The notes beneath the pieces are model-generated. The model was not told the origin of the DNA. It was given only the letters and a program-made list of their open reading frames with translations, and did not search any database. Shown piece by piece: positions 1 to 58,653 of a stretch of DNA of 64,000 nucleotides. Made by a program: the position numbers and the translations under genes. Positions within the stretch are counted from its first letter, which is position 1, and every line of letters begins with the position of its first letter. Source of the stretch: a virus (Duplodnaviria; Heunggongvirae; Uroviricota; Caudoviricetes); the IMG/VR virus record IMGVR_UViG_3300027628_000007. One strand, written 5' to 3'.

Positions 1-286
1 GACACCAATCTTCAATATATCTGTCGATATTACCTAATTCAAATACCTCTTCTGAAAGGAATAAATGTGTCATACGCATACCATGTATTGGTGTTCCCAC
101 TGGCATAATCACAATTCTATCCCAATTTTCAAATGCAAACTCATGAATATTGCGTGTCTGCTTTTCATATTTCAAACTCGTTCCTTTTTCTAAGATAGTT
201 GTTTTCAATGCGTTAATCATCTTTTCTTTTGCAGTGAAGCTTGCAAGGTCATTCACAGAATATAAAACTAAAATACTTTCTCTCAT
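1..286 (-). CDS. hypothetical protein, 3-prime end truncated by window edge (ATG at 286..284, frame continues to position 1)
   Basis: Manual translation of the minus strand gives MRESILVLYSVNDLASFTAKEKMINALKTT...IVIMPVGTPIHGMRMTHLFLSEEVFELGNIDRYIEDWC with no stop before the edge. The start overlaps the stop of the upstream gene (TAATATG). Confidence 0.5.
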   Translation of the reverse strand, partial: MRESILVLYSVNDLASFTAKEKMINALKTTILEKGTSLKYEKQTRNIHEFAFENWDRIVIMPVGTPIHGMRMTHLFLSEEVFELGNIDRYIEDWC

Positions 287-287
287 A

Positions 288-581
288 TTATTTCTCCATT
301 TCTACAATCTCAATTTGAGTGTTATTGATAATCCATTCTCTAGATTCATCACTAACTGTATCATGCAGTACAGCTTTCTCAACTGTAGACCCTTTAACTT
401 CAAATGTAAAGTTCTGGTTGATACGCAAAACTGTAATCCTTTGGTCAATACCTCTCATCTTGTTATAAGGTATCTGACTGCCAACGATAATGGCAACGTT
501 ATGCTTAATAGCATAACGCACCATTTCTAAATCTCCATCGACTTTTTCCTTTTTACCAAATAGTCGTTTGAAGAAGTTCAT
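288..581 (-). CDS. hypothetical protein (97 aa)
   Basis: ORF track; compact minus-strand gene array; start overlaps the stop of the upstream gene. Confidence 0.6.
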   Translation of the reverse strand: MNFFKRLFGKKEKVDGDLEMVRYAIKHNVAIIVGSQIPYNKMRGIDQRITVLRINQNFTFEVKGSTVEKAVLHDTVSDESREWIINNTQIEIVEMEK

Positions 582-838
582 TATTCCACAACCTCAATAG
601 ATGGTACTAATAGATATTCAGTATTCTTTGTAACTAATTTAACTACATTTCTATGAATGAAAACATCCTCTATAGTGGATGTTTCGACAACCATTAGTGC
701 ATCTTCTACATTCACTAATTTTGCAGTGCTACCAATCAGCATTGATTCAATGAAATATCTACGTGCTTGTCGTCTTTCATTTCTAATCTCATTACCTAAT
801 CTATCATACATACCTTCAATACGATATACTAACTTCAT
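581..838 (-). CDS. hypothetical protein; start moved to the internal ATG (MKLVYR...) 5 nt after the ligase stop, preceded by GGAGAG
   Basis: The ORF-track start at 934 would overlap the ligase gene by 92 nt. The internal ATG at 838 has a good RBS. Confidence 0.5.
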   Translation of the reverse strand: MKLVYRIEGMYDRLGNEIRNERRQARRYFIESMLIGSTAKLVNVEDALMVVETSTIEDVFIHRNVVKLVTKNTEYLLVPSIEVVE

Positions 839-842
839 ACTA

Positions 843-2150
843 TCACTCTCCATAGTTAATGTCTTCAATGCCTTTATCATGTCGAATACCTTTGAATACA
901 GGGAAACGAAGTGACAGTTGACCAGTTTTCTCATCTGTTGATTCTTCGAAGAATTGTACTTCGATGATTTTTCCTACAATCTCATCTGGATTGTTGATGA
1001 ATTTTTGACGTTCATCAATTGTAAATCCACTACCACAACCTACTAAATTACCTTTATACTCAACATTAATACGACCTAGCAATCCTTCAAATTGACCGTC
1101 AATAGATTTCTCTACACTCATACATAGAAGGTCTGCTGTCTTAAATTTCTTGACTTTTAATAGACCGTCAGTACGTTTGTTGAGATATAAACCATCAGCA
1201 GTGTTGACCATTAATCCTTCATGACCGTTCTCTTCTACCCACTTCATGAAGTGTGCAATCATTTCTTTATTTGTTCCTTCATACAATACTGGTAGAATAT
1301 GGATATTAGCTTGACCTGCTACATGTTGTTCTAGCACGCCCAATTGATTTCTACGCTTCTCATATGTAAGTTTAGATTTTCCATCGTAAAACTCTGCTAC
1401 TGGTAACATATCAAAGATATGAAACTCTAAATCTTTCTTTTCACCATCTTTACGCACAACCTTTTGTGTAGCTCTGAATAGCTTATCAGATGGTAAGTTC
1501 TCTGTATTGATAAGTAAAAGCTCTCCATCATATACATATCCTTCTGGTAGATTCATAAACTGTGCTTCTAAATCAACCATGTCAAAGATTGGTTGCCCTT
1601 GACGTGTGAAGAATTTAATTGTATTGCCTTCACGAATCGCAACACATCGGTTTCCATCCAGTTTAAGAGTGATAAAGAATTTACCTGTTACTTTCGCTTC
1701 TTTCTTAGCAAATGATTCTGCTAACATTACAGCGAATGCAGGAATCGTACCTTTGCCGTAAATCTTATTTACAGTCTTTTCAGAGATTCCAAGTTTTAAA
1801 TCCTTTGTTACAAACTTCTTGATAAACTCTGCAATATGTTCTTCATGCTTATTAGCAAACTCTTGAATCATATGTATAGTAAAATCACGACCACTATTGT
1901 TTTCTTCTACATATGTAAGTAAGTGGTTAAAGTCTTGGATTGGTTGATAGTTCGCATCGCCTTTCAACACAATTTCTTTACTCATCTTCTTAGTTGAGAT
2001 ACCTGTTGTGATGAATGAATTAAGAAGGAAGTTTAGGGCTTTGAGAATATCCTCATCACCCTTATGTCGTTTTAAGATAGCTTCCTTACCTGTCTTTGCA
2101 GACGTTTCTTGTAGCTGTGAAAATACACCATAGATTTTATTGATATCCAA
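843..2150 (-). CDS. ATP-dependent DNA ligase (T4 gp30-like)
   Basis: Motif I KLDGNR (adenylation lysine), motif V EGLMVN...LLKVKK. The N-terminus INKIYGVFSQL...KEAILKRH resembles the T4 ligase N-terminus. Apparent TTG start. Confidence 0.85.
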   Translation of the reverse strand: MDINKIYGVFSQLQETSAKTGKEAILKRHKGDEDILKALNFLLNSFITTGISTKKMSKEIVLKGDANYQPIQDFNHLLTYVEENNSGRDFTIHMIQEFANKHEEHIAEFIKKFVTKDLKLGISEKTVNKIYGKGTIPAFAVMLAESFAKKEAKVTGKFFITLKLDGNRCVAIREGNTIKFFTRQGQPIFDMVDLEAQFMNLPEGYVYDGELLLINTENLPSDKLFRATQKVVRKDGEKKDLEFHIFDMLPVAEFYDGKSKLTYEKRRNQLGVLEQHVAGQANIHILPVLYEGTNKEMIAHFMKWVEENGHEGLMVNTADGLYLNKRTDGLLKVKKFKTADLLCMSVEKSIDGQFEGLLGRINVEYKGNLVGCGSGFTIDERQKFINNPDEIVGKIIEVQFFEESTDEKTGQLSLRFPVFKGIRHDKGIEDINYGE

Positions 2151-2168
2151 AATTCAATTACCCCTTTA

Positions 2169-2774
2169 TTATTTATTTCGTTTTGTTGTGATTAGTTCAT
2201 CCACTAATCCATAGTTGAATGCATCTGTTCCAGAGAAGTACCAATCAGAATGATATTTGTTTTTCTCATCCATGATATGTTTTGGAAGATTGGACACAGA
2301 TAGCAAGTACCCATCATATGTATCTTGAAGATTTTGAATCTCAACTAAATCATCTTTTAATTGAGTTAGTTTTCCATGAAGACCTGTTGCAACCTCATGG
2401 TACATGAATCGTGCCATTGGGTGAGCAAAGCGTTTGTGACCTGCTGAAAAGATTACTAATCCTGCACTCATTGCTTTGCTGTAGCAGTATGTGTAAACTG
2501 GTGTTTCAGATGAGTCAATCACTGCTGTTAATCCAAATCCGTCATATGCACTTCCACCATATGAGCTAACAGTTAAATGGATTGGCTCACGCACATAGCT
2601 AGGGTCTTCTTTCTGTTTCTTATCATCGTGGCGATTAACTGCTAGAATACCAGTGACGATATCTTTAACAGAGGATTCAGTAACATTTTCATTCAAGATG
2701 AAATCACGTTTAATCGTAGATGTTGATGCCTTTGTCTCTTGGTTTTTAGTCTCGTTATTTGTATTGTTTGTCAT
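2169..2774 (-). CDS. ClpP-family (S14) serine peptidase homolog
   Basis: GxAxSAG-type nucleophile context (KAMSAGLVIFSAG) and an MYHEV segment corresponding to the ClpP MIHQP histidine region. Confidence 0.65.
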   Translation of the reverse strand: MTNNTNNETKNQETKASTSTIKRDFILNENVTESSVKDIVTGILAVNRHDDKKQKEDPSYVREPIHLTVSSYGGSAYDGFGLTAVIDSSETPVYTYCYSKAMSAGLVIFSAGHKRFAHPMARFMYHEVATGLHGKLTQLKDDLVEIQNLQDTYDGYLLSVSNLPKHIMDEKNKYHSDWYFSGTDAFNYGLVDELITTKRNK

Positions 2775-2810
2775 ATTACATTCCCCTTTATCATATAGTT
2801 TAGTATGGTA

Positions 2811-3104
2811 TTAGTTTTGATGTTCTCTGAATGGTTCTGGTTTTACAGTGGCTCTATCAATATTGCTTGACCTAAGGATTAACTCTTCACCAGTTGGAGA
2901 TTCAGTACCAAACCATTCACGCTGTTCAAGCAGGGTGATAATTCTATCAGATGCTTCATCTGCATTCTCCCAATTAACTGCAAGACCCTCTACATAACTA
3001 CCGTCTTTCATTGCAAAGATAACTATGTAGTCAAAGGTCGGCTTAACCTCTTCAATTTTCTCTTCTTCCTTTTTACCAAACCACTTTTTAAATGTTTCAA
3101 TCAT
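2811..3104 (-). CDS. hypothetical protein (97 aa)
   Basis: ORF track; RBS present. Confidence 0.6.
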   Translation of the reverse strand: MIETFKKWFGKKEEEKIEEVKPTFDYIVIFAMKDGSYVEGLAVNWENADEASDRIITLLEQREWFGTESPTGEELILRSSNIDRATVKPEPFREHQN

Positions 3105-3116
3105 TCCAATTCCTCC

Positions 3117-4115
3117 TTAGTGTGCTAGAGTATCTGCTTCACGCAGTAACTCTAGTTTGTCAAACATATCTTTTCCTACTTGTTTCATAAGCTTGTCACG
3201 ATTAGCTCTTTCATCAAGTAAGTACATATGAAACTGAATCAGAGTTGTTGCTTGATGTATAAATGCGGTATTAAATCCTAGTCGTTTAAGGACATGCACT
3301 GCTAGTTGAGCAGAGACATGTTCATGACCAATGAAGTTTGCATATCTAGATGGCTCACCTTTACGATTCTTAAAGTTCTTACAGAAATGCTTACCTGTAT
3401 CATGGAGCATCGCAACCCACAACATAAGCTCTTTATCTTGACCATGATAGTTATTGAATACATAGTCGTAAACGTGATATGTATGACGGCTTACAGAGAA
3501 TGCGTGATACTTTGAATCTTGTGCCATATCTAAGATGTATATGAATATTTCTGGAATAACTCTTGCAAGTTCCTCCATGATTCTGTATCCCATGTTATTT
3601 AACATGACTTGCTTAGTTATGTATTCTCTTTGAGCTTCTGGGAAGTTCTTATCTACAAAGCTGTAATCAAACTCAATCTCATCCCAACCTTCACTAAAGA
3701 TAGGTACTTGAAGATTTTTGTACATCTTTTTAATCACATCATATGGTACAGTTCTTTCTCTCACATGATTGAATGTTACTGCTGTTTTGAATGGAGTTGT
3801 CATGTAAACAACTTTCTTATGTACGCCTTTAGGTAATTGTTGCAGTAATCCTTTTCGCTTCTTACGACTGATATTAGTAGCATCATAGATTACGCTTTGC
3901 CCATCTTTCAACGCTTTCTTTGTACGTTTCGCCATTTCTTGGAAAATCATTGCAGGGTCGGCTTGGTCATTAACATCTCCATGAATCTCTTGTCGAAGAT
4001 TGTCAGATGATAACCAAAGTGCATCATCCCCATTTTCATTTGCATATGTGGACTTCCCAGATGCAGGAAGACCCACTAGCATTGTAAATGTTGGTTTAAA
4101 GATTTCGATTTCCAT
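3117..4115 (-). CDS. bifunctional polynucleotide 5-prime kinase (P-loop) / HD-domain phosphoesterase (RNA/DNA end-healing enzyme)
   Basis: N-terminal Walker A GLPASGKST followed by an SSD catalytic Asp context, as in T4 Pnk-type kinases. C-terminal HD signature (H...HDTGKH...GHEH...D). Confidence 0.7.
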   Translation of the reverse strand: MEIEIFKPTFTMLVGLPASGKSTYANENGDDALWLSSDNLRQEIHGDVNDQADPAMIFQEMAKRTKKALKDGQSVIYDATNISRKKRKGLLQQLPKGVHKKVVYMTTPFKTAVTFNHVRERTVPYDVIKKMYKNLQVPIFSEGWDEIEFDYSFVDKNFPEAQREYITKQVMLNNMGYRIMEELARVIPEIFIYILDMAQDSKYHAFSVSRHTYHVYDYVFNNYHGQDKELMLWVAMLHDTGKHFCKNFKNRKGEPSRYANFIGHEHVSAQLAVHVLKRLGFNTAFIHQATTLIQFHMYLLDERANRDKLMKQVGKDMFDKLELLREADTLAH

Positions 4116-4171: not shown

Positions 4172-5449
4172 TTATTCTGTTGCTGATTCTTCTTCTTCAA
4201 TGTCAAGGACATCATCTGCTTTAATGATACCTTCTAAGACTTTGAAGTTAAATGACTTCTGTTTGAATGCAGAGAATTTCTCTCTGTTCTCAATACGTAC
4301 AATTACACCTTCACGTAAATGTGTTTTACCGATTGGGTCTGCACCATCTACATGAGCGTTTACACGTTTCATCAAGTCATCAGCAGTTGTAAACTTAAAT
4401 GAATCTAACTCTGGGCAAATCTTAACTCCCATTTGTTCACAACGAAGTTTAACTAAGTGCCAAGGGTACTCAACAACCTGTCCATCTTCGTTCGTCATTG
4501 TCATGCGGTATACATAAATATCGCTTTGACCTACTCCACAACCGTATGTAAATCGTGTCTTATCGCCATATGTCTTGATAAACTCTTTATCTTTCGTTTT
4601 CTTATTATCGCATTCTGGCATAATAAGTGTATCTTGGTTTACATATCCTACAACTTCATAGAATACTTCTTCACCTTTATGTAATTTACCGTCAAAGAAA
4701 TCATGCCATTGCTTTCTAAACTCGTTGCTACCGTAGTAACCGCCACCAAATTGCGTAGTGTTTAAAGTCACACGTCTAGTACCTGTTACATAATCCCAAA
4801 CTTTTGTTGGCTTAGTCTTGATGCCAATCTTATTTAAGAATTTAGCAAACTTTGATTTATGCTCTTTGACTGTGTGAGCAGTACGTTGAGATGTTCCATG
4901 AAGTTTTAAAGAGATTACACAGTCATCGCCTTCTTTGAAGCTACGAGTATTGTAAGCTAGTTGAGCTGTATCAATATGCTGTTCAAAGAATGGGTAATTA
5001 ACCACATCTTCTTTCTTTTGCTTCTCTTTGTTCTTGCCTTGTGGCATATCTTTTCGTGGTTTAGACTTTGGTACATACTTCTCACAGATTACCACACCTT
5101 TTAAGATATCAATTGTGTCACCCTCTTTAAGAGTATCAATTTTGACAAACTTTGCAAGAGATGTGATTGGCATGAATAAACCATCTGATTTCTCTCCACG
5201 TAAACGGATTGTAGTTACATGACGCTTTTCGTCATCTAAGTAACCGCCTTGTGTACGAAGTAATTTGTTTTCTTCCGCATATTCTAGACCTAATTTACCG
5301 TCTGTAGGGAAGTAAACACCTAAGTCTCCTTCTTTTACATCTAAGCTAACAATTACATCGTTACCGAATAGTTCTGCAACTTGTAATCTATCTGCATTAG
5401 AATGCTTTCGTAGTTTTTTAACAGTTGTAATATAAGCTTGGTAAGCCAT
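4172..5449 (-). CDS. RNA ligase, Rnl2-like nucleotidyltransferase domain with N-terminal OB-like domain
   Basis: Motif I KLHG (the KxHG form is typical of Rnl2/RNA-editing ligases), motif III FYEVVG, motif IV EGVIVR, motif V KQKSFNFK. The window already has a separate DNA ligase. Adjacent to the Pnk-HD gene. Confidence 0.7.
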   Translation of the reverse strand: MAYQAYITTVKKLRKHSNADRLQVAELFGNDVIVSLDVKEGDLGVYFPTDGKLGLEYAEENKLLRTQGGYLDDEKRHVTTIRLRGEKSDGLFMPITSLAKFVKIDTLKEGDTIDILKGVVICEKYVPKSKPRKDMPQGKNKEKQKKEDVVNYPFFEQHIDTAQLAYNTRSFKEGDDCVISLKLHGTSQRTAHTVKEHKSKFAKFLNKIGIKTKPTKVWDYVTGTRRVTLNTTQFGGGYYGSNEFRKQWHDFFDGKLHKGEEVFYEVVGYVNQDTLIMPECDNKKTKDKEFIKTYGDKTRFTYGCGVGQSDIYVYRMTMTNEDGQVVEYPWHLVKLRCEQMGVKICPELDSFKFTTADDLMKRVNAHVDGADPIGKTHLREGVIVRIENREKFSAFKQKSFNFKVLEGIIKADDVLDIEEEESATE

Positions 5450-6624: not shown

Positions 6625-6900
6625 CTATTTGCTTTCTTTGATTGTTACAGTTCCTTCCATAACTCCATATGTACTATCTTCTTTAAACTTATAAGTCTCT
6701 GCTTTATCTTGTTCTGTCATTGGACGTGTAAGATACCAAAGAGCAGATTCTTTCCATGTGATATTAACTAGCTTTTCACCTTTAGGGAGATTGACTGTGT
6801 AACTTCCACCAAAACTCTTCGCTCCTATTTGACATCCAGAAAGACCTACTAAACCTGCAATTGCTGTTAATCCGATTAAAAACTTTTTCATCATAATCAC
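6625..6900 (-). CDS. lipoprotein (signal peptide with lipobox LSGC)
   Basis: MIMMKKFLIGLTAIAGLVGLSGC: hydrophobic h-region followed by Cys. Confidence 0.7.
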   Translation of the reverse strand: MIMMKKFLIGLTAIAGLVGLSGCQIGAKSFGGSYTVNLPKGEKLVNITWKESALWYLTRPMTEQDKAETYKFKEDSTYGVMEGTVTIKESK

Positions 6901-7523
6901 TCCTTATCAGTATCTAGCGGTGCTAGTAATTTAAATTCACTCTTTAAACTATTGTAAATTGGTTGGAAGAATTTCTTAATTGTATCCCAATCCTTCATAG
7001 CCATAACACTTCCTAAGAAACGGTTTGCACATTCGTAATCTACGATTCTACCATGCTTTGCAATTTGAATCCCAAACATCAAGATTCTGATTGAATGAAA
7101 CATGCTCTTTTTGCCGATATAATCTTCACCAATCGCTAATTTCTTTTTACATTTAACAAAACTGTTAGAAGAAATCCCAGAGATATTTCTACGTAATGCT
7201 TCTAGATTTGGTTCAAAATGCTCACGATATTTACTATCTTCTTTTTGGAAGATACATTCTAGGTAGCTAATATGTTGCTCTTTAATCTTCTTAATAAACA
7301 GTGCTTCGCTTACTACGTGAATAGAGACATCATCACGCTCAAACGTATAATCAAGTTCTAGGTCATGACTGTCTGCAACAGCCATGAAATCATAATCTGA
7401 ATCCGCATTGTCAGTTCCGTAGACCCTAGAGCCATACGGATAGATTGCCAATAGTTTTTCATTAATGTTTCTTTTTGTTTCCCACATGTTATCACTCCTA
7501 TAGTTGACCCATTGCGTAGTCAT
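6897..7523 (-). CDS. minimal nucleotidyltransferase (Pol-beta superfamily, MNT-like)
   Basis: hGS...G...SDYDF motif (IYPYGSRVYGTDNADSDYDFMAV). Confidence 0.65.
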   Translation of the reverse strand: MTTQWVNYRSDNMWETKRNINEKLLAIYPYGSRVYGTDNADSDYDFMAVADSHDLELDYTFERDDVSIHVVSEALFIKKIKEQHISYLECIFQKEDSKYREHFEPNLEALRRNISGISSNSFVKCKKKLAIGEDYIGKKSMFHSIRILMFGIQIAKHGRIVDYECANRFLGSVMAMKDWDTIKKFFQPIYNSLKSEFKLLAPLDTDKE

Positions 7524-25583: not shown

Positions 25584-26354
25584 CTATGCTACTAATTTAT
25601 TTTTAACTAATTGCATGATTAGGTTGTCGATATGTAATTTAAGCTCTTCATTTGGTTTCTGTGAGCGGTACTTATCTTTCAGATGTACGAATTGTGCATC
25701 GTGGATATGATTAACTAGACGTTCAAAGCTTTCTTGATTCCAGAAACCATATTTGATTTCATGCATAAAGAATACTTCTTCGCCTTCATATCGCAATGCT
25801 TTCTCTGGATTCTTAAATCCTAATGCTTCATACTTGATTGCAAAGTCTAACAAGCGATAAGCGTGCTGTGCTTGCTTTGTATCGAATCCAAATAGGTCTA
25901 CTAATACTTGTGTACCTTCTGTACCTTTAGGCAACAGCTTCATCTTTTGTTTAAATGTACCGCCAAGAGCATCAAATAGCTTTGGAAGGTTCATGTTAAA
26001 GATGTCATAACGTAAATCATAAAGCTCTTTTAATTCCTTGCTATCTTCAAGATACAGCTCTTTAGAGATTAAAGGCTCTAAGTAATTCAAGTTAGCCTTC
26101 CAGAACAAGTCTGGGAGCTTACGGATGTCGTGCACATCATAATCTGCATCTGCACCGATGATGCTTTCTGCAAACATCTTCTGCTTGTACAGCTCTTCAA
26201 ATGTAGGAGTTACAAATGCTTTGTAATCCTTGTCAGATGCAAGGATAATCTTGCCACTGATTTTCTTTTCACCTGTTGCTAGATTGTAATTGTTTGACCC
26301 TACTAATGCTTGTACTAATACTTCTCTTCCTAAGATTGTTTTCATGTTTTTCAT
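25584..26354 (-). CDS. hypothetical protein (256 aa)
   Basis: ORF track; own promoter copy upstream. Confidence 0.6.
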   Translation of the reverse strand: MKNMKTILGREVLVQALVGSNNYNLATGEKKISGKIILASDKDYKAFVTPTFEELYKQKMFAESIIGADADYDVHDIRKLPDLFWKANLNYLEPLISKELYLEDSKELKELYDLRYDIFNMNLPKLFDALGGTFKQKMKLLPKGTEGTQVLVDLFGFDTKQAQHAYRLLDFAIKYEALGFKNPEKALRYEGEEVFFMHEIKYGFWNQESFERLVNHIHDAQFVHLKDKYRSQKPNEELKLHIDNLIMQLVKNKLVA

Positions 26355-26923: not shown

Positions 26924-27421
26924 TTACACCTCATACTTTCTTAATAGTTTTACAATTTTGTCAAGATGTGCTTTCTTATGTACACTGTCTGCTTTCCATG
27001 CCATACCAGACTCCATAATCCAGTTTGCATCAATAGGATGCCAACGTACCCATTTGCTAAATGTTACATATGTATTTTCAGAATCCAAACCTGTGTGCTC
27101 TGCTAGTTTCATAATCTGTTCATCTGTCACAGACTCATGAAACATTACGCTGAATGATTCACCATCTTTATGACCGTAACAGCAGAATTTTGTTTTCAAT
27201 CCAATTTCGAAATTGATTACGTCTAGCATCTCAATCATTTCTGGGTCAATCTCATCATATGGAATACCATGAGCGTTGAAGCGATGACGTAACGCTTTCT
27301 CAATCGTACTCTCTTTCATATCGTGGAAGCAACCATGACAAAGATTAGCCTTATGTGCATTACTTCCTTTTGTTACCTTTTCATAAGTTTGACAATTACC
27401 GCAACCGATTTCTACTTTCAT
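26924..27421 (-). CDS. hypothetical zinc-finger protein (CGNC...CHGC)
   Basis: Two CxxC pairs near the N-terminus. Confidence 0.55.
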   Translation of the reverse strand: MKVEIGCGNCQTYEKVTKGSNAHKANLCHGCFHDMKESTIEKALRHRFNAHGIPYDEIDPEMIEMLDVINFEIGLKTKFCCYGHKDGESFSVMFHESVTDEQIMKLAEHTGLDSENTYVTFSKWVRWHPIDANWIMESGMAWKADSVHKKAHLDKIVKLLRKYEV

Positions 27422-28026
27422 TATGCTGTTTCCTCCTGTTTACGTAGTTCATCTCGTACTTCCATTAACACTTGACCTAATAGGTTCATGCCTTTCCACT
27501 TCTTAGGGTCTTCTACGTCTGGATGGTCTTTATGCATACCGATTCCCCAGATTCTATCAGAAGGGCTTGCTTCCACAAGCATCTTATTACCTGTTGCAAG
27601 AATACATTTTTTCAAGAATGGTACAGAGAATTTATCCATTAACACTTCTTTGTAGATTCTCTTACGATTCTTCTGCCAAACATCTTCCTTGAATGGAATG
27701 TCATTGCTACGACCTAATAGCTTACAGTAACTTGGTGTATCGGCTTCTAAAATATCTTTTGCAACGTCTGTCGCACCAAATAACATAGCTTTACGATACA
27801 TTACCGCCTGCTCTGACCATAAGAATCGTATGCCTTGATGCCTGAATGGTGAGAAGTTAAAGTTTGAGTACACGCTGTCACCCATCCAGAAGAAGATAAA
27901 CTTATCAGTTTCTCTTGCATTCTGTCCAAGACCTCTTTTAACTCTACCGATTTTCGCATCAGTTTCACGCTTTTGCTTCAAGAATCGTTCTTGGTCTGCT
28001 TTTGTTAATTTAGGTTTCTCTCTCAT
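27421..28026 (-). CDS. NADAR (YbiA/DUF1768) domain protein - ADP-ribose processing N-glycosidase
   Basis: Collinear match to E. coli YbiA: FFW..G..SNF...PF......F...E...M.KA.LF......IL....P...K.LGR.......W......EV...KF.....LL.TG...LVE.SP.D..WG.G. Confidence 0.8.
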   Translation of the reverse strand: MREKPKLTKADQERFLKQKRETDAKIGRVKRGLGQNARETDKFIFFWMGDSVYSNFNFSPFRHQGIRFLWSEQAVMYRKAMLFGATDVAKDILEADTPSYCKLLGRSNDIPFKEDVWQKNRKRIYKEVLMDKFSVPFLKKCILATGNKMLVEASPSDRIWGIGMHKDHPDVEDPKKWKGMNLLGQVLMEVRDELRKQEETA

Positions 28027-28027
28027 G

Positions 28028-28495
28028 TTAACCTCCTAGTAATGATAATAGTCTAGTAATGTCTTTTGGTTGATGCCCATCATATTCTGGTGCAAATTCT
28101 AATTCTTTCACTTTAAATAAATCATAATCTTCTTCTCTGTAATGATATGAATACTGACCTTCTGGTGTATCGACTCCAACAATAAATGACCCATCAAACA
28201 TTGTGCCATCTGAATGTTGCCAAGACTTCCATGCTTTGTCTTTGTATGTATGACAGATTACTAAGAATAACATCATGCGATGATAATACAGTTCATCAAA
28301 AGTGTGATAGCCATCGCTAAACTCTCCAACTCTCATAACTAAATCAGCAGGAATATGATTATGTGTTCCGTCTAAAGTAACGGTTGAAACATCTTTTCTA
28401 GACCCAAAATTTTCAACATCTGTCTTAGTTATCTTATATATTGTTGGTAAATCTGATTTGAAAATAACCTTGTTGCCTGCTTTAAATTTACTCAT
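28028..28495 (-). CDS. hypothetical protein
   Basis: ORF track. Confidence 0.6.
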   Translation of the reverse strand: MSKFKAGNKVIFKSDLPTIYKITKTDVENFGSRKDVSTVTLDGTHNHIPADLVMRVGEFSDGYHTFDELYYHRMMLFLVICHTYKDKAWKSWQHSDGTMFDGSFIVGVDTPEGQYSYHYREEDYDLFKVKELEFAPEYDGHQPKDITRLLSLLGG

Positions 28496-29102
28496 CGTCT
28501 TCCTCCACTTCGAATCCGTCTACTTTAAACTCAACCATAACCATTTCATGGCACTCTACTTTATCTTCTGTCATCTCTGGAAACTCGCCTTCAACTAGAC
28601 TAATAATCTCTTGGAAGCAACCTCTTGTATCGTCTACAACCTCGTGAGCTTCAACTGTTACATAGATAACCCAATCCTCATCGCAATACCCAACGCTAGG
28701 CGTATAATCAAGGTCTTGGCTATCTAGAAACTCTTCTACTCTATCTGCTAATGCATCAAATTCTTCTAATTTATTTTTAACTGTTTCGTCAAAGATTTCA
28801 ACATCAAACACTTTACCATTTTCATCTATGTACTCAATTGTTAATTCTGTTAATGTGTGACAATTCCCATCCCAACCATTGTAAGGGATATCTAAGTCCA
28901 TAGGATTAGGATAGTTTTCTAATTCATGACTACCACCATAGTTCACTTGAAGATTTACTAATTCTCGAATACGTTCTTCAAATTCAAACTTACCAAAACG
29001 CATTGTGCTATACATGTAGTCTGCATCATTTGAATCTGCCTTAATTCTTACAATAAATGTATCTCTCATGTTTGAAACCTTTTCTGATAGTGTGTATCCC
29101 AT
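28488..29102 (-). CDS. hypothetical acidic protein
   Basis: ORF track. Confidence 0.6.
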   Translation of the reverse strand: MGYTLSEKVSNMRDTFIVRIKADSNDADYMYSTMRFGKFEFEERIRELVNLQVNYGGSHELENYPNPMDLDIPYNGWDGNCHTLTELTIEYIDENGKVFDVEIFDETVKNKLEEFDALADRVEEFLDSQDLDYTPSVGYCDEDWVIYVTVEAHEVVDDTRGCFQEIISLVEGEFPEMTEDKVECHEMVMVEFKVDGFEVEEDDE

Positions 29103-33433: not shown

Positions 33434-33790
33434 CTACTTTCTGTTTGATGTTAATGTAACGCTAACAACGTCTTTACCATCTGTCACAACGTCAAATCTT
33501 AAATCCTTTTCTTTGTTTACCATTCTAGCAGTGTTTAGGATTCTTTCTACATCTTCATACAAAGCAGTAGATACTCTAAATTTTGTAGCACTGCCCTCTT
33601 TCTCAAAATAGATTACATATGAAGAATACCGACCTGCATTTTCAGAATCAAGTTTGGATACTCTTGCATCTGTAATTGTTACATTTTCATTGATGTTTTT
33701 ATATTCACTCTCAACTCCACAACCTGCCAATATGTTTATTGTTAAAACAGTAGACATAGTTAGTAAAAAGAATTTCTTCATCCAATTCAT
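33434..33790 (-). CDS. lipoprotein (lipobox LAGC), paralog A
   Basis: Signal peptide + LAGC; C-terminus ...VVTDGKDVVSVTLTSNRK. Confidence 0.7.
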   Translation of the reverse strand: MNWMKKFFLLTMSTVLTINILAGCGVESEYKNINENVTITDARVSKLDSENAGRYSSYVIYFEKEGSATKFRVSTALYEDVERILNTARMVNKEKDLRFDVVTDGKDVVSVTLTSNRK

Positions 33791-33798
33791 TTACCTAC

Positions 33799-34149
33799 CT
33801 ACTTTCTATTAGATGATAATGTTACGTTGTAAATCCTATTTCCATCAGTGACAATATCGAAATATGCTTCTTCTGGTTTATTGATGAATTTTGCAGTCTT
33901 TAATACATTCTGAATATCTATGTATATCTCTTTTTTAACATATGATTCAAACAATGTATCACTACCTTCTTTCTTAAACCAGACTTGATACCATAGGTAC
34001 TTACTACCACCGCTATCTGTCTTTACCACCTGTACGTCTGTGATAATATATGTTTTATTAATATCGAAATGTGGAGGTTTATTAACCTCACATCCTGCCA
34101 ACAAAGATGTTGCTACTAAGAGGATAATGGCAATTAGTGTTTTATTCAT
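33799..34149 (-). CDS. lipoprotein (lipobox LAGC), paralog B
   Basis: Signal peptide + LAGC; C-terminus ...IVTDGNRIYNVTLSSNRK, clearly homologous to 33434..33790. Confidence 0.7.
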   Translation of the reverse strand: MNKTLIAIILLVATSLLAGCEVNKPPHFDINKTYIITDVQVVKTDSGGSKYLWYQVWFKKEGSDTLFESYVKKEIYIDIQNVLKTAKFINKPEEAYFDIVTDGNRIYNVTLSSNRK

Positions 34150-34409: not shown

Positions 34410-34868
34410 TTAGAGTTTGTATAATGTTACTTCATAACCGTCAAAAGCTTTGTCTATTAACTTATAAACCTCTGTCCAATCCGCTCCACCTCTATCACTA
34501 CCAATTAGGTATGGAAGTGCAACAGATAAGGCATATGATTCTGCAAAATCTCTTAAATCCTTCATAGCTTTATAGAGAGCCATTGTCTTTGTGTATTGAT
34601 TCCCATCTCCACCATATGTAAGCTGACCAAAAAGATTTGCAACCACCTTGCCATCCATCAGTACAAGATGACATTTCCCTAACAATTCTGTCCTAGAGTT
34701 CTCTTTCACAAAGTTTGTCACATATTCAACATAAGTTGTATAGGCTTCTGGGAAGGATTGGCGTATGCATTTCGCAACGCCACTTCCCATAACACCCATC
34801 GCATTCACTTGATGACCAATGACATCCTCACTGGCTTCCATTAAATCTCCATTAACAATCTTAATCAC
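34410..34868 (-). CDS. macrodomain protein, DarG/TARG1-like (ADP-ribosyl hydrolase)
   Basis: N-terminal IVNGDLMEASEDVIGHQVNAMGVMGSGVAKCIRQSFP follows the GD...aH.vN..G..G.GvA pattern of DarG/TARG1-type macrodomains. Confidence 0.7.
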   Translation of the reverse strand: MIKIVNGDLMEASEDVIGHQVNAMGVMGSGVAKCIRQSFPEAYTTYVEYVTNFVKENSRTELLGKCHLVLMDGKVVANLFGQLTYGGDGNQYTKTMALYKAMKDLRDFAESYALSVALPYLIGSDRGGADWTEVYKLIDKAFDGYEVTLYKL

Positions 34869-34887
34869 TTAATCATCTCCTTGAATA

Positions 34888-35902: not shown

Positions 35903-36111
35903 TTAACATCATCCTTTTCTTTCTCTTTTTTCTCTCTTCTACGATTCTTCCAACCTTCAAACTTATGGAAGCTCTTAGGATGGATTGTCTCCCAGAATAA
36001 CCCAACTAATCCAAGGGCTACTCGTAATAATGCTAGAATAATAATAACTGCAATCATCCATCCTACTAGTTTTGCAAGCATCCACAATGTTGTTAAGACT
36101 GCTGTTGTCAT
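35899..36111 (-). CDS. small membrane protein with basic C-terminus
   Basis: TM helices then KNRRREKKEKEKDDVK. Confidence 0.55.
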   Translation of the reverse strand: MTTAVLTTLWMLAKLVGWMIAVIIILALLRVALGLVGLFWETIHPKSFHKFEGWKNRRREKKEKEKDDVK

Positions 36112-36872
36112 TTAAGTGTTCCTCCTTTTGTGATTATCTTAATGTTTTCCATCACTTCTTCCATATCAATTTGATAATCAAACATACCAATTACTTCTTG
36201 GGCTGTTCGAATACCATGTAAGTATTCCTTAATCTCTGCAATCTGTCTCTTATGCTCTGCAACAAATTCATGATGCTGTTTAATCTTAATCAAGTGTGGC
36301 ATAATAGTTGTCTTGGCAGAATGAAAGAATCGTGCATGTTCTGGATATCTTTTACGACATGCTTTGAAGAATGGCAGGAAGAATTTCTCTGTTTCCAATG
36401 CCTGTCTCAATTCTTTCTCTGGCGTTGCATCTTTTAATGTGCCAAAATTATTCTTTCTATCTACTGTTTTAATTTTAGCCATTCGGACATTTTGCAGTAT
36501 GATGTCTAAGTACGCCTGCATATTCTCTTCTTTCTTGTAGTCGATGTTTGGCAACTTTGTTACTCCCATTACTGTATCAGCAACCTCTTGACCAAACAGA
36601 CTTTTAACAGCTTCATAGTTGATGTCTGGGACATCTTCGATTGCATCATGCAGTATACATGCGGTCAAAGTTACTTCATCGGTTTCACCATGATTAATTA
36701 AATCCTGTGTTGCATCTACCAAGTGATAGTAATAGTGACGACCATCATGTCGTTTATATCCGTTATCAGCGTTCATAACTGATATCATCCAATTAAGAGC
36801 TTTTAACGCTTCTTTACAACCCATCTCTGCTAAATCCATTTGCAACTGTACTACACGACTTTCTTTCGCCAT
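36108..36872 (-). CDS. RelA/SpoT-family HD hydrolase (small alarmone hydrolase, Mesh1-like)
   Basis: HD-domain motifs RHDGRHYYYHL..., ILHDAIEDV, and FGQEVADTVMGVTKL, as in the SpoT (p)ppGpp hydrolase domain. No synthetase domain. Confidence 0.8.
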   Translation of the reverse strand: MAKESRVVQLQMDLAEMGCKEALKALNWMISVMNADNGYKRHDGRHYYYHLVDATQDLINHGETDEVTLTACILHDAIEDVPDINYEAVKSLFGQEVADTVMGVTKLPNIDYKKEENMQAYLDIILQNVRMAKIKTVDRKNNFGTLKDATPEKELRQALETEKFFLPFFKACRKRYPEHARFFHSAKTTIMPHLIKIKQHHEFVAEHKRQIAEIKEYLHGIRTAQEVIGMFDYQIDMEEVMENIKIITKGGTLK

Positions 36873-56363: not shown

Positions 56364-56392
56364 AATATACCATTATCTTTTCTCTATGTCAA
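56364..56392 (-). promoter_or_regulatory. sigmaA-type promoter (TTGACA-17-TATATT) at end of nadR
   Basis: Family spacer. Confidence 0.55.
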
Positions 56393-57412
56393 CAAGTTAT
56401 CGACATAATTTATTGCTTTTGTAATTCTTTCGTTGTAATTGCCTTTAATCGTTATGTATTGGACACCCATGTATCTTAACATATACTTTAAATCATCATT
56501 GTTCTGCTCACGCACATGTTGCTCACCGAATGTCCTAGTGCCATCGTCAACCCATTTTACATCTGGCTCTAGGAAAATCCATAGGTCATACTTTTGATTG
56601 TTTGCAATACGTGTTAGAAGTGCATCTCGCTCATTTAAATATGCTTTTAAATAGTATTGCGTAACAATCGCTTCTGTGTCAACAAAGAGCACTTTGTTAG
56701 CATTCTTTAAAGCATTAAATTCATCTACCTTATGTTGGTATGCAATGAGCTGATAATCTTCTGCCATTGTAATGTCTTTACATCCACCTAATTCCTCATA
56801 GAATGTGCGACCATATTCTTCTACGTAATTAGTATTATACAATGTTGCTAGATTTTTGACAAGTGTTGATTTGCCACAAGATTCTGTTCCTACAATAACT
56901 ACTTTTTTAACATAATATCGTCTTACTACTTCTGGTAGAAGCTCCCAATTTTTATAGACACCTTCTGTACGAAGCTTTGTAGCGGATATTGTATACTTTT
57001 CACGATTCGCATCGACTACGACATGTTCTGCATCTGGGTATAACACATTGAAAAACTCTGTGTAAGCATGTTCGGAAGAGAATACGTGAGTGATAGGTTC
57101 ACCCACAGCTTTCTTAATCCCTTCCGCACCTTGCTTCCAACTCTCAATCTTGCCTGTATTCTCTTCGTATACAGCGTGTACATGTACATGGGGCATATCC
57201 TTTGTAATTTCCGTCCACCATCTTACACGTTGTTTATGGTCAACATGTGGAAGGAAACTATCTTTACTAAGCACGTTCTTCTCATAATTCTCATCATATG
57301 AAACTATTACATGTAGCTCATCAACCATTGTTGATGCCATTGTCATTGCAAACACATGACCCATATGTATTGGATAAAACTTTCCACCTAAAAATCCTAC
57401 TGTTTTTGACAT
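56384..57412 (-). CDS. nadR: NadR-like bifunctional NMN adenylyltransferase / ribosylnicotinamide kinase
   Basis: N-terminal GGKFYPIHMGHV (HxGH nucleotidyltransferase, near-identical to the NadR NMNAT motif GKFYPLHTGH); C-terminal Walker A GTESCGKSTL (RNK domain). Confidence 0.85.
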   Translation of the reverse strand: MSKTVGFLGGKFYPIHMGHVFAMTMASTMVDELHVIVSYDENYEKNVLSKDSFLPHVDHKQRVRWWTEITKDMPHVHVHAVYEENTGKIESWKQGAEGIKKAVGEPITHVFSSEHAYTEFFNVLYPDAEHVVVDANREKYTISATKLRTEGVYKNWELLPEVVRRYYVKKVVIVGTESCGKSTLVKNLATLYNTNYVEEYGRTFYEELGGCKDITMAEDYQLIAYQHKVDEFNALKNANKVLFVDTEAIVTQYYLKAYLNERDALLTRIANNQKYDLWIFLEPDVKWVDDGTRTFGEQHVREQNNDDLKYMLRYMGVQYITIKGNYNERITKAINYVDNLLT

Positions 57413-57912
57413 TTCTCTTCCCTCTTTCTTTTATCTTCATGCATTTTTCTAGTATTATCTGCTAAAGTTAACCATTGACAATTGCTAGGCTCATAATCTC
57501 CATCTGCATCAATTCTGTCAATAGACAATCCTTCCTCATATCCATTTTCTATAGCCCATTTGTAAAATGGTTCAAATTTCTGCCATTCATCGCAAACCTT
57601 AATTCCCCTGCCACCATATCGTTCATATCCTGTTATGGTAGGAGTGCTACATCGACCTTTCATTGTAGCCCATAGCTTATAGATTTTAGTCCCATCCATA
57701 CCATGTTTCTTATTTTGTTTACCTATCTTGCTTAGATTTTCTTTTCTTAGGCAACCGCAAGATTGTTGTTTCCCTGTCCTTACATTTCTATATGCAACAT
57801 CCTTTTCGTTACCGCAATCGCACTTGACTCGTACATATCGTTCTTTCTTTCTAACATCTAAAATCTCTATGACAGTTAATCTATTGAATCTGTCACCAAT
57901 TTTTGCTCCCAA
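57397..57912 (-). CDS. homing-endonuclease-like (HNH/AP2-associated) phage protein
   Basis: N-terminal GDRFNRLTVIE...CDCGN...SCGC and C-terminal GLSIDRIDADGDYEPSNCQWLT motifs common in phage HNH/AP2-type HEG proteins. Confidence 0.45.
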   Translation of the reverse strand: MGAKIGDRFNRLTVIEILDVRKKERYVRVKCDCGNEKDVAYRNVRTGKQQSCGCLRKENLSKIGKQNKKHGMDGTKIYKLWATMKGRCSTPTITGYERYGGRGIKVCDEWQKFEPFYKWAIENGYEEGLSIDRIDADGDYEPSNCQWLTLADNTRKMHEDKRKREEKCQKQ

Positions 57913-58653
57913 TTACGCCACCTCATTTTGTTCTTTCGCATTTTTCGACCATTTGATGTAACCATAGATACTGTTGCATAAGTACGCACACCACATAACT
58001 AATACTGTAACATTTCCTCCATCATGCATGAAAGCGTTAAACCATAGAATGATAGTTAAAGTGTTTACTGCAATCCATAACAACCATTGTTCTGCATATC
58101 GTTTAAGCATTAAAAGTTGAGCTGTAATTGATAATGTTACTGCGAATCCATCAATACCTGCTTGCTTACTGCCAATCATATGTAAGAATACACCGTACAA
58201 GATTCCAACCGTTAAAACTGTTAATGCTACGTATAACCAACCTTTTTTTGTTAACTTCTTAGCTTTTACTACTGTATCATTTTCTGTTACTGACTTATTC
58301 TTGCTCCAAACATAGAATCCAATAAATTGCATTGGGAAGTATAAGAAAGCATTTAGCATAAACTCACCATATAGCTGTGCACTGTAAGCTATGTAAGCGT
58401 ATAACGCTGTGTTGATTGCCCCAAAGAAGTAGTTTCCTATTTTTCCTTTGGCTACGAGAACTACGCACAACATACCAGTTAGAGAAGATGCTAGTCCGAT
58501 TAATGTATCATCGAATGCAAAGTACATATAGATAATAAGTGCTGTGAATGATGTTAACCATGTTAATTCGAATGCTGACCAACCTTTTAATAGTGTTTTC
58601 ATAATAATTTCCACCTTTACGTTATTTTTTAAAAAACATGAATATAATTTCAA
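57913..58653 (-). CDS. pnuC: PnuC nicotinamide riboside transporter
   Basis: About 245 aa with 7-8 TM helices and Trp-rich motifs (YFPMQFIGFYVWSKN) typical of PnuC; same operon as nadR. Confidence 0.75.
   Translation of the reverse strand: MKLYSCFLKNNVKVEIIMKTLLKGWSAFELTWLTSFTALIIYMYFAFDDTLIGLASSLTGMLCVVLVAKGKIGNYFFGAINTALYAYIAYSAQLYGEFMLNAFLYFPMQFIGFYVWSKNKSVTENDTVVKAKKLTKKGWLYVALTVLTVGILYGVFLHMIGSKQAGIDGFAVTLSITAQLLMLKRYAEQWLLWIAVNTLTIILWFNAFMHDGGNVTVLVMWCAYLCNSIYGYIKWSKNAKEQNEVA

Follow-up and report, generated by a model that had tools for sequence, protein, structure and literature searches.

The macrodomain gene and its genomic setting

Analysis of a 64,000-nt stretch of phage DNA (IMG/VR record IMGVR_UViG_3300027628_000007; hereafter the window) led to one macrodomain gene, which has a GTG start preceded by a ribosome-binding site (Table 1). 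The existence of this gene, proposed by the first-pass annotation, was confirmed by a match with PHROG 335 ("phosphatase", E-value = 1e-39), by profile matches with PDB structures and by an AlphaFold2 model (pLDDT 96.1, pTM 0.91); the N-terminal block on which the proposal was built corresponds to residues 6-40. The protein has the macrodomain fold, a three-layer alpha/beta/alpha structure with Gly-rich ADP-ribose-binding loops, and it is indeed free-standing, as it lacks the C-terminal DarT-binding domain of DarG. Its match with Pfam Macro (PF01661) is marginal, at 22.1 bits for a cut-off of 22. At least 416 homologues were found in a large protein collection, and relatives of the protein are already annotated as macro domain or Poa1p-like proteins.

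Table 1. Features of the window and of the adjoining contig region (L017) discussed in the text.
Feature	Position	Strand	Details
Kirov_92-like ORF cut by the left edge of the window	1-286	-	
ATP-dependent DNA ligase	846-2150	-	
Polynucleotide kinase	3120-4109	-	
RNA ligase	4175-5449	-	
Pol-beta/RlaP-like nucleotidyltransferase	6897-7523		
Pol-beta/RlaP-like nucleotidyltransferase	25584-26354		
NADAR gene	27421-28026	-	201 aa; Pfam NADAR 3e-39
WDGH-domain gene	28028-28495	-	PF25311, 3e-45
ORF following the WDGH gene	28488-29102		204 aa; no Pfam match
Small lipoprotein gene	33434-33790	-	118 aa
Small lipoprotein gene	33799-34149	-	116 aa
Macrodomain gene	34410-34868	-	free-standing, 152 aa; Gln-type, ALC1-like class, Adpp/PHROG 335 family
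Phosphate-binding loop P119-YLIGSDRGGAD-W131	34476-34514	-	profile and MAFFT alignments
Codon CAG, Gln82	34623-34625	-	site of the catalytic Lys (K80 in DarG, K84 in TARG1); in SCO6735, the essential Gln85
Codons of His19-Gln-Val-Asn22 (H-x-x-N motif)	34803-34814	-	invariant in homologue alignments
Ribosome-binding site AAGGAGA	34876-34882	-	8 nt upstream of the GTG start; direct sequence reading
SpoT-like HD_4 domain protein	36108-36872	-	
NadR-like NMN adenylyltransferase/ribosylnicotinamide kinase	56387-57412	-	Pfam AAA_28 and CTP_transf_like; 91.5% identity to Kirov_201 NadR
ORF between the NadR-like and PnuC-like genes	57397-57912		171 aa
PnuC-like nicotinamide riboside/NMN transporter	57916-58602	-	Pfam NMN_transporter 2e-46; 96.5% identity to Kirov_202
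Adps-like (Prs-like) gene	L017 3909-4805	same as macrodomain gene	298 aa; starts 152 nt beyond window position 1; 52% identity to SPbetaL1 Adps
Namat-like gene	L017 5432-7168	same as macrodomain gene	578 aa; 1.7-3.4 kb beyond window position 1; Pfam NAMPT_N/NAPRTase

The region of the gene presents about 79% DNA identity with Bacillus phage Kirov (Andregratiavirinae; 165.7 kb, host B. cereus), in which the orthologue Kirov_158 is annotated as "macro domain containing protein" and Kirov_134 as "NADAR family protein". Around the macrodomain and NADAR genes every gene lies on the minus strand, and the neighbors of the macrodomain gene are small ORFs, lipoproteins and an HD-domain protein, with no darT gene and no match with ADP-ribosyltransferases (ARTs) among them. 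The two lipoprotein genes directly downstream are paralogous, each product having a signal peptide plus Cys and the C-terminus SNRK, and the pair is present in Kirov too. The HD_4 gene, 1.2 kb upstream, is labeled (p)ppGpp synthase/hydrolase in relatives, and its position is kept across Tsamsa-, Kirov- and Nate-like phages.

The NADAR gene, reported by the first-pass annotation at about 6.5 kb, is located 6,383 bp away. NADARs of the window and of Kirov are longer by about 37 residues at the N-terminus, and most other Bacillus phage NADARs match residues 38-195 only. The WDGH-domain gene lies 1 nt upstream of NADAR and is followed by the 204-aa ORF; the three may form one operon. Near the left end of the window, DNA ligase, polynucleotide kinase (PNK) and RNA ligase genes stand in a row as a T4-type RNA repair set, and two nucleotidyltransferase genes were also annotated.

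A glutamine-type active site in the ALC1-like class

A profile of 47 homologues was compared with PDB and matched BT1257 of B. thetaiotaomicron (PDB 2FG1/2AFC; E-value = 1e-15), DarG of M. tuberculosis (5M3I; 4e-15) and SCO6735 of S. coelicolor (5E3B; 1.5e-12), as well as DarG of T. aquaticus (5M31/5M3E), Poa1p and TARG1. The nearest structures and profiles belong to the ALC1-like class (TARG1, DarG, SCO6735, Poa1p) and not to MacroD, PARG or the viral macrodomains, which answers the comparison with DarG and MacroD proposed earlier. The likeness to DarG at the N-terminus holds up as well: PDB matches of the single sequence span residues 1-48, and the DarG models of NCBIfam and PADLOC match with E-values of 1e-14 and 1.6e-15. 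The NCBIfam model (NF048014) gives 54.6 bits for a cut-off of 250, with the best stretch at its positions 1-48 of 338. The suggested likeness to Macro_2 was not borne out, Pfam PF14519 giving no match at E ≤ 1. In a neighbor-joining tree of 27 family members, the deep nodes of which have bootstrap values of 2-37%, DarG is separate and SCO6735 and BT1257 fall among Gln-type phage proteins.

The proposed DarG/TARG1 type is thus right for the clade and wrong for the catalytic residue. A profile alignment to 5m3i, 5m31, 5e3b and 2fg1 and two MAFFT alignments placed Gln82 where DarG and TARG1 have their catalytic lysine; at this position DarG has the motif NFPTK, whereas the window protein has ANLFGQ. 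Gln82 is invariant among the 47 close homologues, and Gln occupies the site in every phage homologue fetched (FelixO1-like FO1a gp13, Pseudomonas phages VCM and PAK_P2, ESCO5, Rheinheimera phage Barba, jumbo phage Sharanji and Vibrio phage K470), as well as in SCO6735 and BT1257. The Lys84/Asp125 dyad of human TARG1/OARD1 (18% identity) is absent altogether, since the counterpart of Asp125 is Gly127. Phage AdfM (PhiKZ gp104, active site N23/K78; PMC13309987) differs likewise, its Asn being kept and its Lys78 replaced by Gln82, and yeast Poa1p, an ADPR-1''-phosphatase with 25% identity, has Ser at the Gln82 site and a long insertion. As the whole phage family lacks the catalytic lysine, a "DarG-like" match by PADLOC, NCBIfam or N-terminal motif is no proof of DarG chemistry.

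The active site has its counterpart in SCO6735 and BT1257, with which the protein shares the essential Gln, the positioning Asn and the nearby His. Asn22 aligns with Asn27 of SCO6735 and Asn22 of DarG, and His19 with His24 of SCO6735, where DarG has Asn instead. In SCO6735, the Q85A and Q85E replacements abolished removal of thymine-linked ADP-ribose (ADPr) from ssDNA, and N27S nearly did so (PMC9411070). Of the catalytic Lys/acid equivalents mentioned by the first-pass annotation both are absent, and the Gln-type site found in their place is proven catalytic in SCO6735. SCO6735 and BT1257 form a subclass with an extended mobile loop, five residues longer than in DarG/TARG1; that of the window protein is four residues longer than DarG's and one to two shorter than theirs.

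Other residues set the protein apart from SCO6735. There, K34 and K89 serve to position DNA, and the G128E variant is less active (PMC9411070), whereas the aligned residues of the window protein are Ser29, Gly86 and Asp125. Its phosphate-binding loop carries Asp125-Arg126 where SCO6735, DarG and TARG1 carry Gly-Leu/Asn. Furthermore, it is phage-encoded and acidic (pI 5.15, net charge -4), unlike the basic DNA-active macrodomains (pI 8.6-9.8, SCO6735 at 9.8), although net charge is weak evidence as a proxy for DNA binding, given that pI spans 4.8 to 9.1 inside the Bacillus phage clade.

Phage relatives and NAD+ genes

Relatives of the protein were detected by tblastn in 908 of 50,697 phage records. 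The macrodomain protein of Vibrio phage K470 retrieved the same family when used as the query (779 records, 39 of them of Bacillus phages). Judged by its sequence, the gene is a member of the phage-wide Adpp/PHROG 335 family within the ALC1-like class; it is a new and fairly ordinary addition to a known family that is widespread in phages. RES-domain defense proteins (aRES) cleave NAD+ to nicotinamide and ADP-ribose-1''-phosphate (ADPR-1''P), which NARP1 (Adps and Namat) is unable to use; the Macro-domain protein Adpp is found in 15% of NARP1 operons, and the Adpp from Gary, a Vibrio phage, turns ADPR-1''P into ADPR and is needed for NARP1-AP to defeat aRES (Osterman et al., January 2026 preprint, bioRxiv 10.64898/2026.01.28.702374). 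Table S1 of the same preprint includes PAK_P2, VCM and relatives of K470 as NARP1-associated Macro proteins, all of which are Gln-type, and contains no Bacillus phage (bioRxiv 10.64898/2026.01.28.702374).

The window protein resembles Adpp in its Gln at the DarG lysine position, its H-x-x-N motif and its free-standing form of about 150 aa. Gary Adpp (KNV71_gp137), also Gln-type (VYGQ), aligns with it from end to end (26% identity, E-value = 3e-11), but has the loop GCGLAGG instead of GSDRGG. Identity is 32-39% with NARP1-adjacent macrodomains (39% for PAK_P2 and VCM, 32% for K470), 27-29% with DarG and only 25-26% with SCO6735 and BT1257. Among the phage homologues fetched with 300-bp flanks, three of six lie beside phosphoribosyltransferase-like genes (VCM, ESCO5 and K470). 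The homologues of PAK_P2, VCM and ESCO5 adjoin Prs-like and NAMPT-like genes; the order in PAK_P2 is Prs-like, one gene, NAMPT-like, one gene, macro, and in K470 it is Prs-like, macro, NAMPT-like, that is, with the macrodomain gene between Adps and Namat. Homologues from Paenibacillus bacteria are orphans with neither conserved neighbors nor DarT; one of them adjoins an RNA ligase gene.

We also studied the 80 best-scoring IMG/VR loci, whose relatives share 34-53% identity with the window protein. Adps-like and Namat-like genes are present within 10 kb in 50 of them, mostly 1.4-3 kb upstream and including one locus with a relative at 48% identity (L032), and NADAR is within 10 kb in nine. Two NARP1-adjacent relatives (L087 and L096) have Glu at the Gln82 position, in the signature HNAET, and may be divergent or of another mechanism, the Q85E variant of SCO6735 being inactive. 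The Arg126 loop type (xRGG) is strongly associated with NARP1 adjacency across the 80 loci (41/47 with it versus 9/33 without, Fisher p = 7e-8), and the association is weaker after clustering at 60% identity (10/15 versus 3/15). We considered this signature as a discriminator between Adpp and SCO6735 and dropped it, also as a functional determinant, because the loop of the validated Gary Adpp has Gly-Leu, like that of SCO6735.

NAD+ genes are also present in the genome to which the window belongs. Using the DNA ligase protein of the window, we located ENA contig ERZ27241723 k141_1889 (169,314 bp), of which L017 positions 1-3757 are 100% identical to window positions 3757-1; this identity over 3,757 bp makes it the genome of the window. 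Like the Adpp systems, it encodes Adps-like and Namat-like genes, the former similar to Adps of Bacillus phage SPbetaL1, the validated NARP1 source. Three small ORFs separate the two genes, and the Kirov orthologue of the Namat-like gene has 40% identity with the K470 gene. This NARP1-like pair lies about 35-38 kb from the macrodomain gene and not within two genes of it as in Adpp operons. The NadR-like and PnuC-like genes, with one ORF between them, are a predicted NARP3-like NAD+ salvage pair. NARP3 is a two-gene architecture named recently (PMC13464706), described in 2026 mainly from phages of Enterobacteriaceae; here such a pair occurs in a Bacillus phage that also carries the NARP1-like pair.

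The position of the macrodomain gene outside the NARP1 operon is general in Bacillus phages, where it was never found inside that operon and sits with NADAR in a replication/accessory module. The conserved block comprises RecJ, SpoT-like HD, in some cases RNase H, macro and, after further genes, NADAR and gyrase. In phages PK-3, FADO, 2S-4 and PJN02 the gap between macro and NADAR is 0.33 kb, with one small ORF. Among the matches listed for 25 named macro-positive Bacillus/Geobacillus phages, NADAR is present in 19 and an Adps-like gene in at least 16; neither association counts as independent evidence, because these phages are related. Many NARP1-positive Bacillus phages (Bastille-like) are without the macrodomain gene, and no Namat-like gene was detected at E ≤ 1e-20 in 115 macro-positive Rheinheimera phage Barba records, which indicates that macro and NARP1 are not obligately coupled. 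In Bacillus relatives, a homologue of Gad2 (anti-Gabija) follows the macrodomain gene or one of Tad4 (anti-Thoeris) lies nearby (L015, 8468-9139; L107, 10742-11395; L108, 13884-14216), so the block can be regarded as an anti-defense gene neighborhood.

Candidate substrates of the macrodomain

We propose that this Gln-type, lysine-less macrodomain is an ADPR-1''P phosphatase feeding NARP1, with a probability of roughly one in two, and that the role of the gene most likely lies elsewhere than in the DarG-type DNA repair assigned by the first-pass annotation. The ADP-ribose moiety would be bound in the canonical macrodomain cleft, where Gln82, held by Asn22, would position the ribose ring oxygen in the manner of Gln85/Asn27 of SCO6735; water would attack the anomeric C1'' of the distal ribose and free ADP-ribose would be released. 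The likeliest physiological substrate would be ADPR-1''P made by RES-domain NAD+ phosphorylases of aRES defense, homologues of which occur in B. cereus strains (Table S2, bioRxiv 10.64898/2026.01.28.702374). The released ADPR may then feed the phage's own Adps/Namat pair, on the same strand, so that NAD+ is rebuilt. This reading is favored by the higher identity to NARP1-adjacent macrodomains, by the dominant genomic association of the family and by the NARP1-like genes of the genome; the loss of the DNA-positioning lysines and the acidic pI, as weak evidence, also speak against a DNA substrate. Against it stand the lack of NARP1 linkage in Bacillus phages, the NARP1-positive phages without the macrodomain, the macro-positive phages without a detectable Namat gene and an identity of only 26% to the one tested enzyme, Gary Adpp. 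If it is true, the phage would have a layered NAD+-centered counter-defense, consisting of the NARP1-like pair, the NARP3-like pair, an unlinked Adpp-like phosphatase and NADAR, and the NARP1-AP logic would extend to Gram-positive phages; a phosphatase encoded away from the operon would be missed by operon-based surveys.

Alternatively, the protein may be an anti-DarT2 repair enzyme that removes thymine-ADPr from phage ssDNA by the Gln-dependent mechanism of SCO6735, not by the lysine of DarG/TARG1, and is paired with NADAR, which acts on guanine-ADPr, against DarTG1 and DarTG2. We consider this possible, though doubtful. SCO6735 is also Gln-type and cleaves thymine-ADPr, phage NADARs remove ADPr from guanine and counter DarTG1 (PMC11825919), and the phage macrodomain AdfM counters DarTG2 (PMC13309987). 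The gene travels with NADAR in Bacillus phages and adjoins Gad2 and Tad4 in relatives. Moreover, DarTG is present in 11.2% of B. cereus-group genomes, mostly plasmid-borne, and is over-represented there compared with other Bacillota (PMC11811056). However, AdfM is of the DarG-like Lys type (PMC13309987), and the lysine it shares with DarG and TARG1 is absent here; the SCO6735 residues needed for activity on DNA are replaced, and the pI is acidic where all DNA-active relatives are basic. In addition, the wider family is mostly embedded in NAD+ reconstitution operons, and vertical inheritance in a single phage group confounds the joint presence with NADAR.

The two activities need not be separate. 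The chemistry suggested for ADPR-1''P could strip ADP-ribose from other C1''-linked groups, and a second activity on ADPr-DNA is chemically plausible because ADP-ribose undergoes substitution at its anomeric C1'' in either case. The choice between ADPR-1''P and thymine-ADPr as the substrate bears on whether a single Gln-type active site can do both jobs. A more speculative proposal, which we hold to be rather unlikely, is that the Gln-type macrodomain of large Bacillus siphoviruses, having left the NARP1 operon and become linked to NADAR, may act on DNA as a lysine-independent anti-DarT2 enzyme, with the two proteins erasing thymine- and guanine-ADPr in hosts that have DarTG unusually often, as the first-pass annotation had envisaged for a DarG-like enzyme, and the ADPR possibly being recycled through the phage NARP1. 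A single enzyme would then connect the removal of ADPr from DNA with NAD+ reconstitution. To see whether NADAR might feed NARP1, we inspected Staphylococcus phage 812, in which NADAR and NAMPT are not adjacent.

It seems improbable that the enzyme hydrolyzes some other signal or ADP-ribose conjugate, such as O-acetyl-ADPR, proteins mono-ADP-ribosylated by a host transferase, RNA carrying ADP-ribose or an RNA-repair by-product, and thereby supplies ADPR or erases a host mark. The class is promiscuous at C1'', with TARG1, Poa1p and SCO6735 acting on protein, DNA and small molecules (PMC9411070, PMC9503650), and the authors of a survey of NAD+/ADPr systems in viruses argued for small ADPr derivatives as the main substrates of phage Macro and NADAR domains (PMC9503650). 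The PNK, RNA ligase and nucleotidyltransferases of the window, together with the Paenibacillus homologue beside an RNA ligase, could fit such a role. Nevertheless, the T4-type PNK/ligase route makes no ADPR-1''P, neither the window nor the Kirov annotation yielded a sirtuin, Tpt1/KptA or ART partner, and no positive evidence points to any one of these substrates.

A non-catalytic ADP-ribose binder, acting as reader or sponge, is very improbable: the absence of the TARG1/DarG Lys/Asp residues and the marginal Pfam score would agree with it, but the homologues show no variation at His19, Asn22, Gln82 and in the Gly-rich loops, catalysis by SCO6735 depends on the same residues, and Gary Adpp, a phage protein of the Gln type, has proven enzyme activity. 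The suggestion of the first-pass annotation that the macrodomain services a phage-encoded ART, as an immunity or reversal partner, is scarcely credible: toxin-antitoxin-like pairs of ART or sirtuin with Macro do exist in phages (PMC9503650), but ART, sirtuin and RES gave no Pfam match among 30 proteins of the window with lengths from about 125 aa upward, no ART or sirtuin is annotated in the complete Kirov genome, and the immediate neighbors are the small ORFs and lipoproteins described above. The survey of viral NAD+/ADPr systems also tied DUF4326 to Macro, SLOG and NADAR genes, and Bacillus phage Thrax2 (L019, 8977-9267) encodes a DUF4326 protein (E-value = 2e-24) 3.5 kb from its macrodomain gene.
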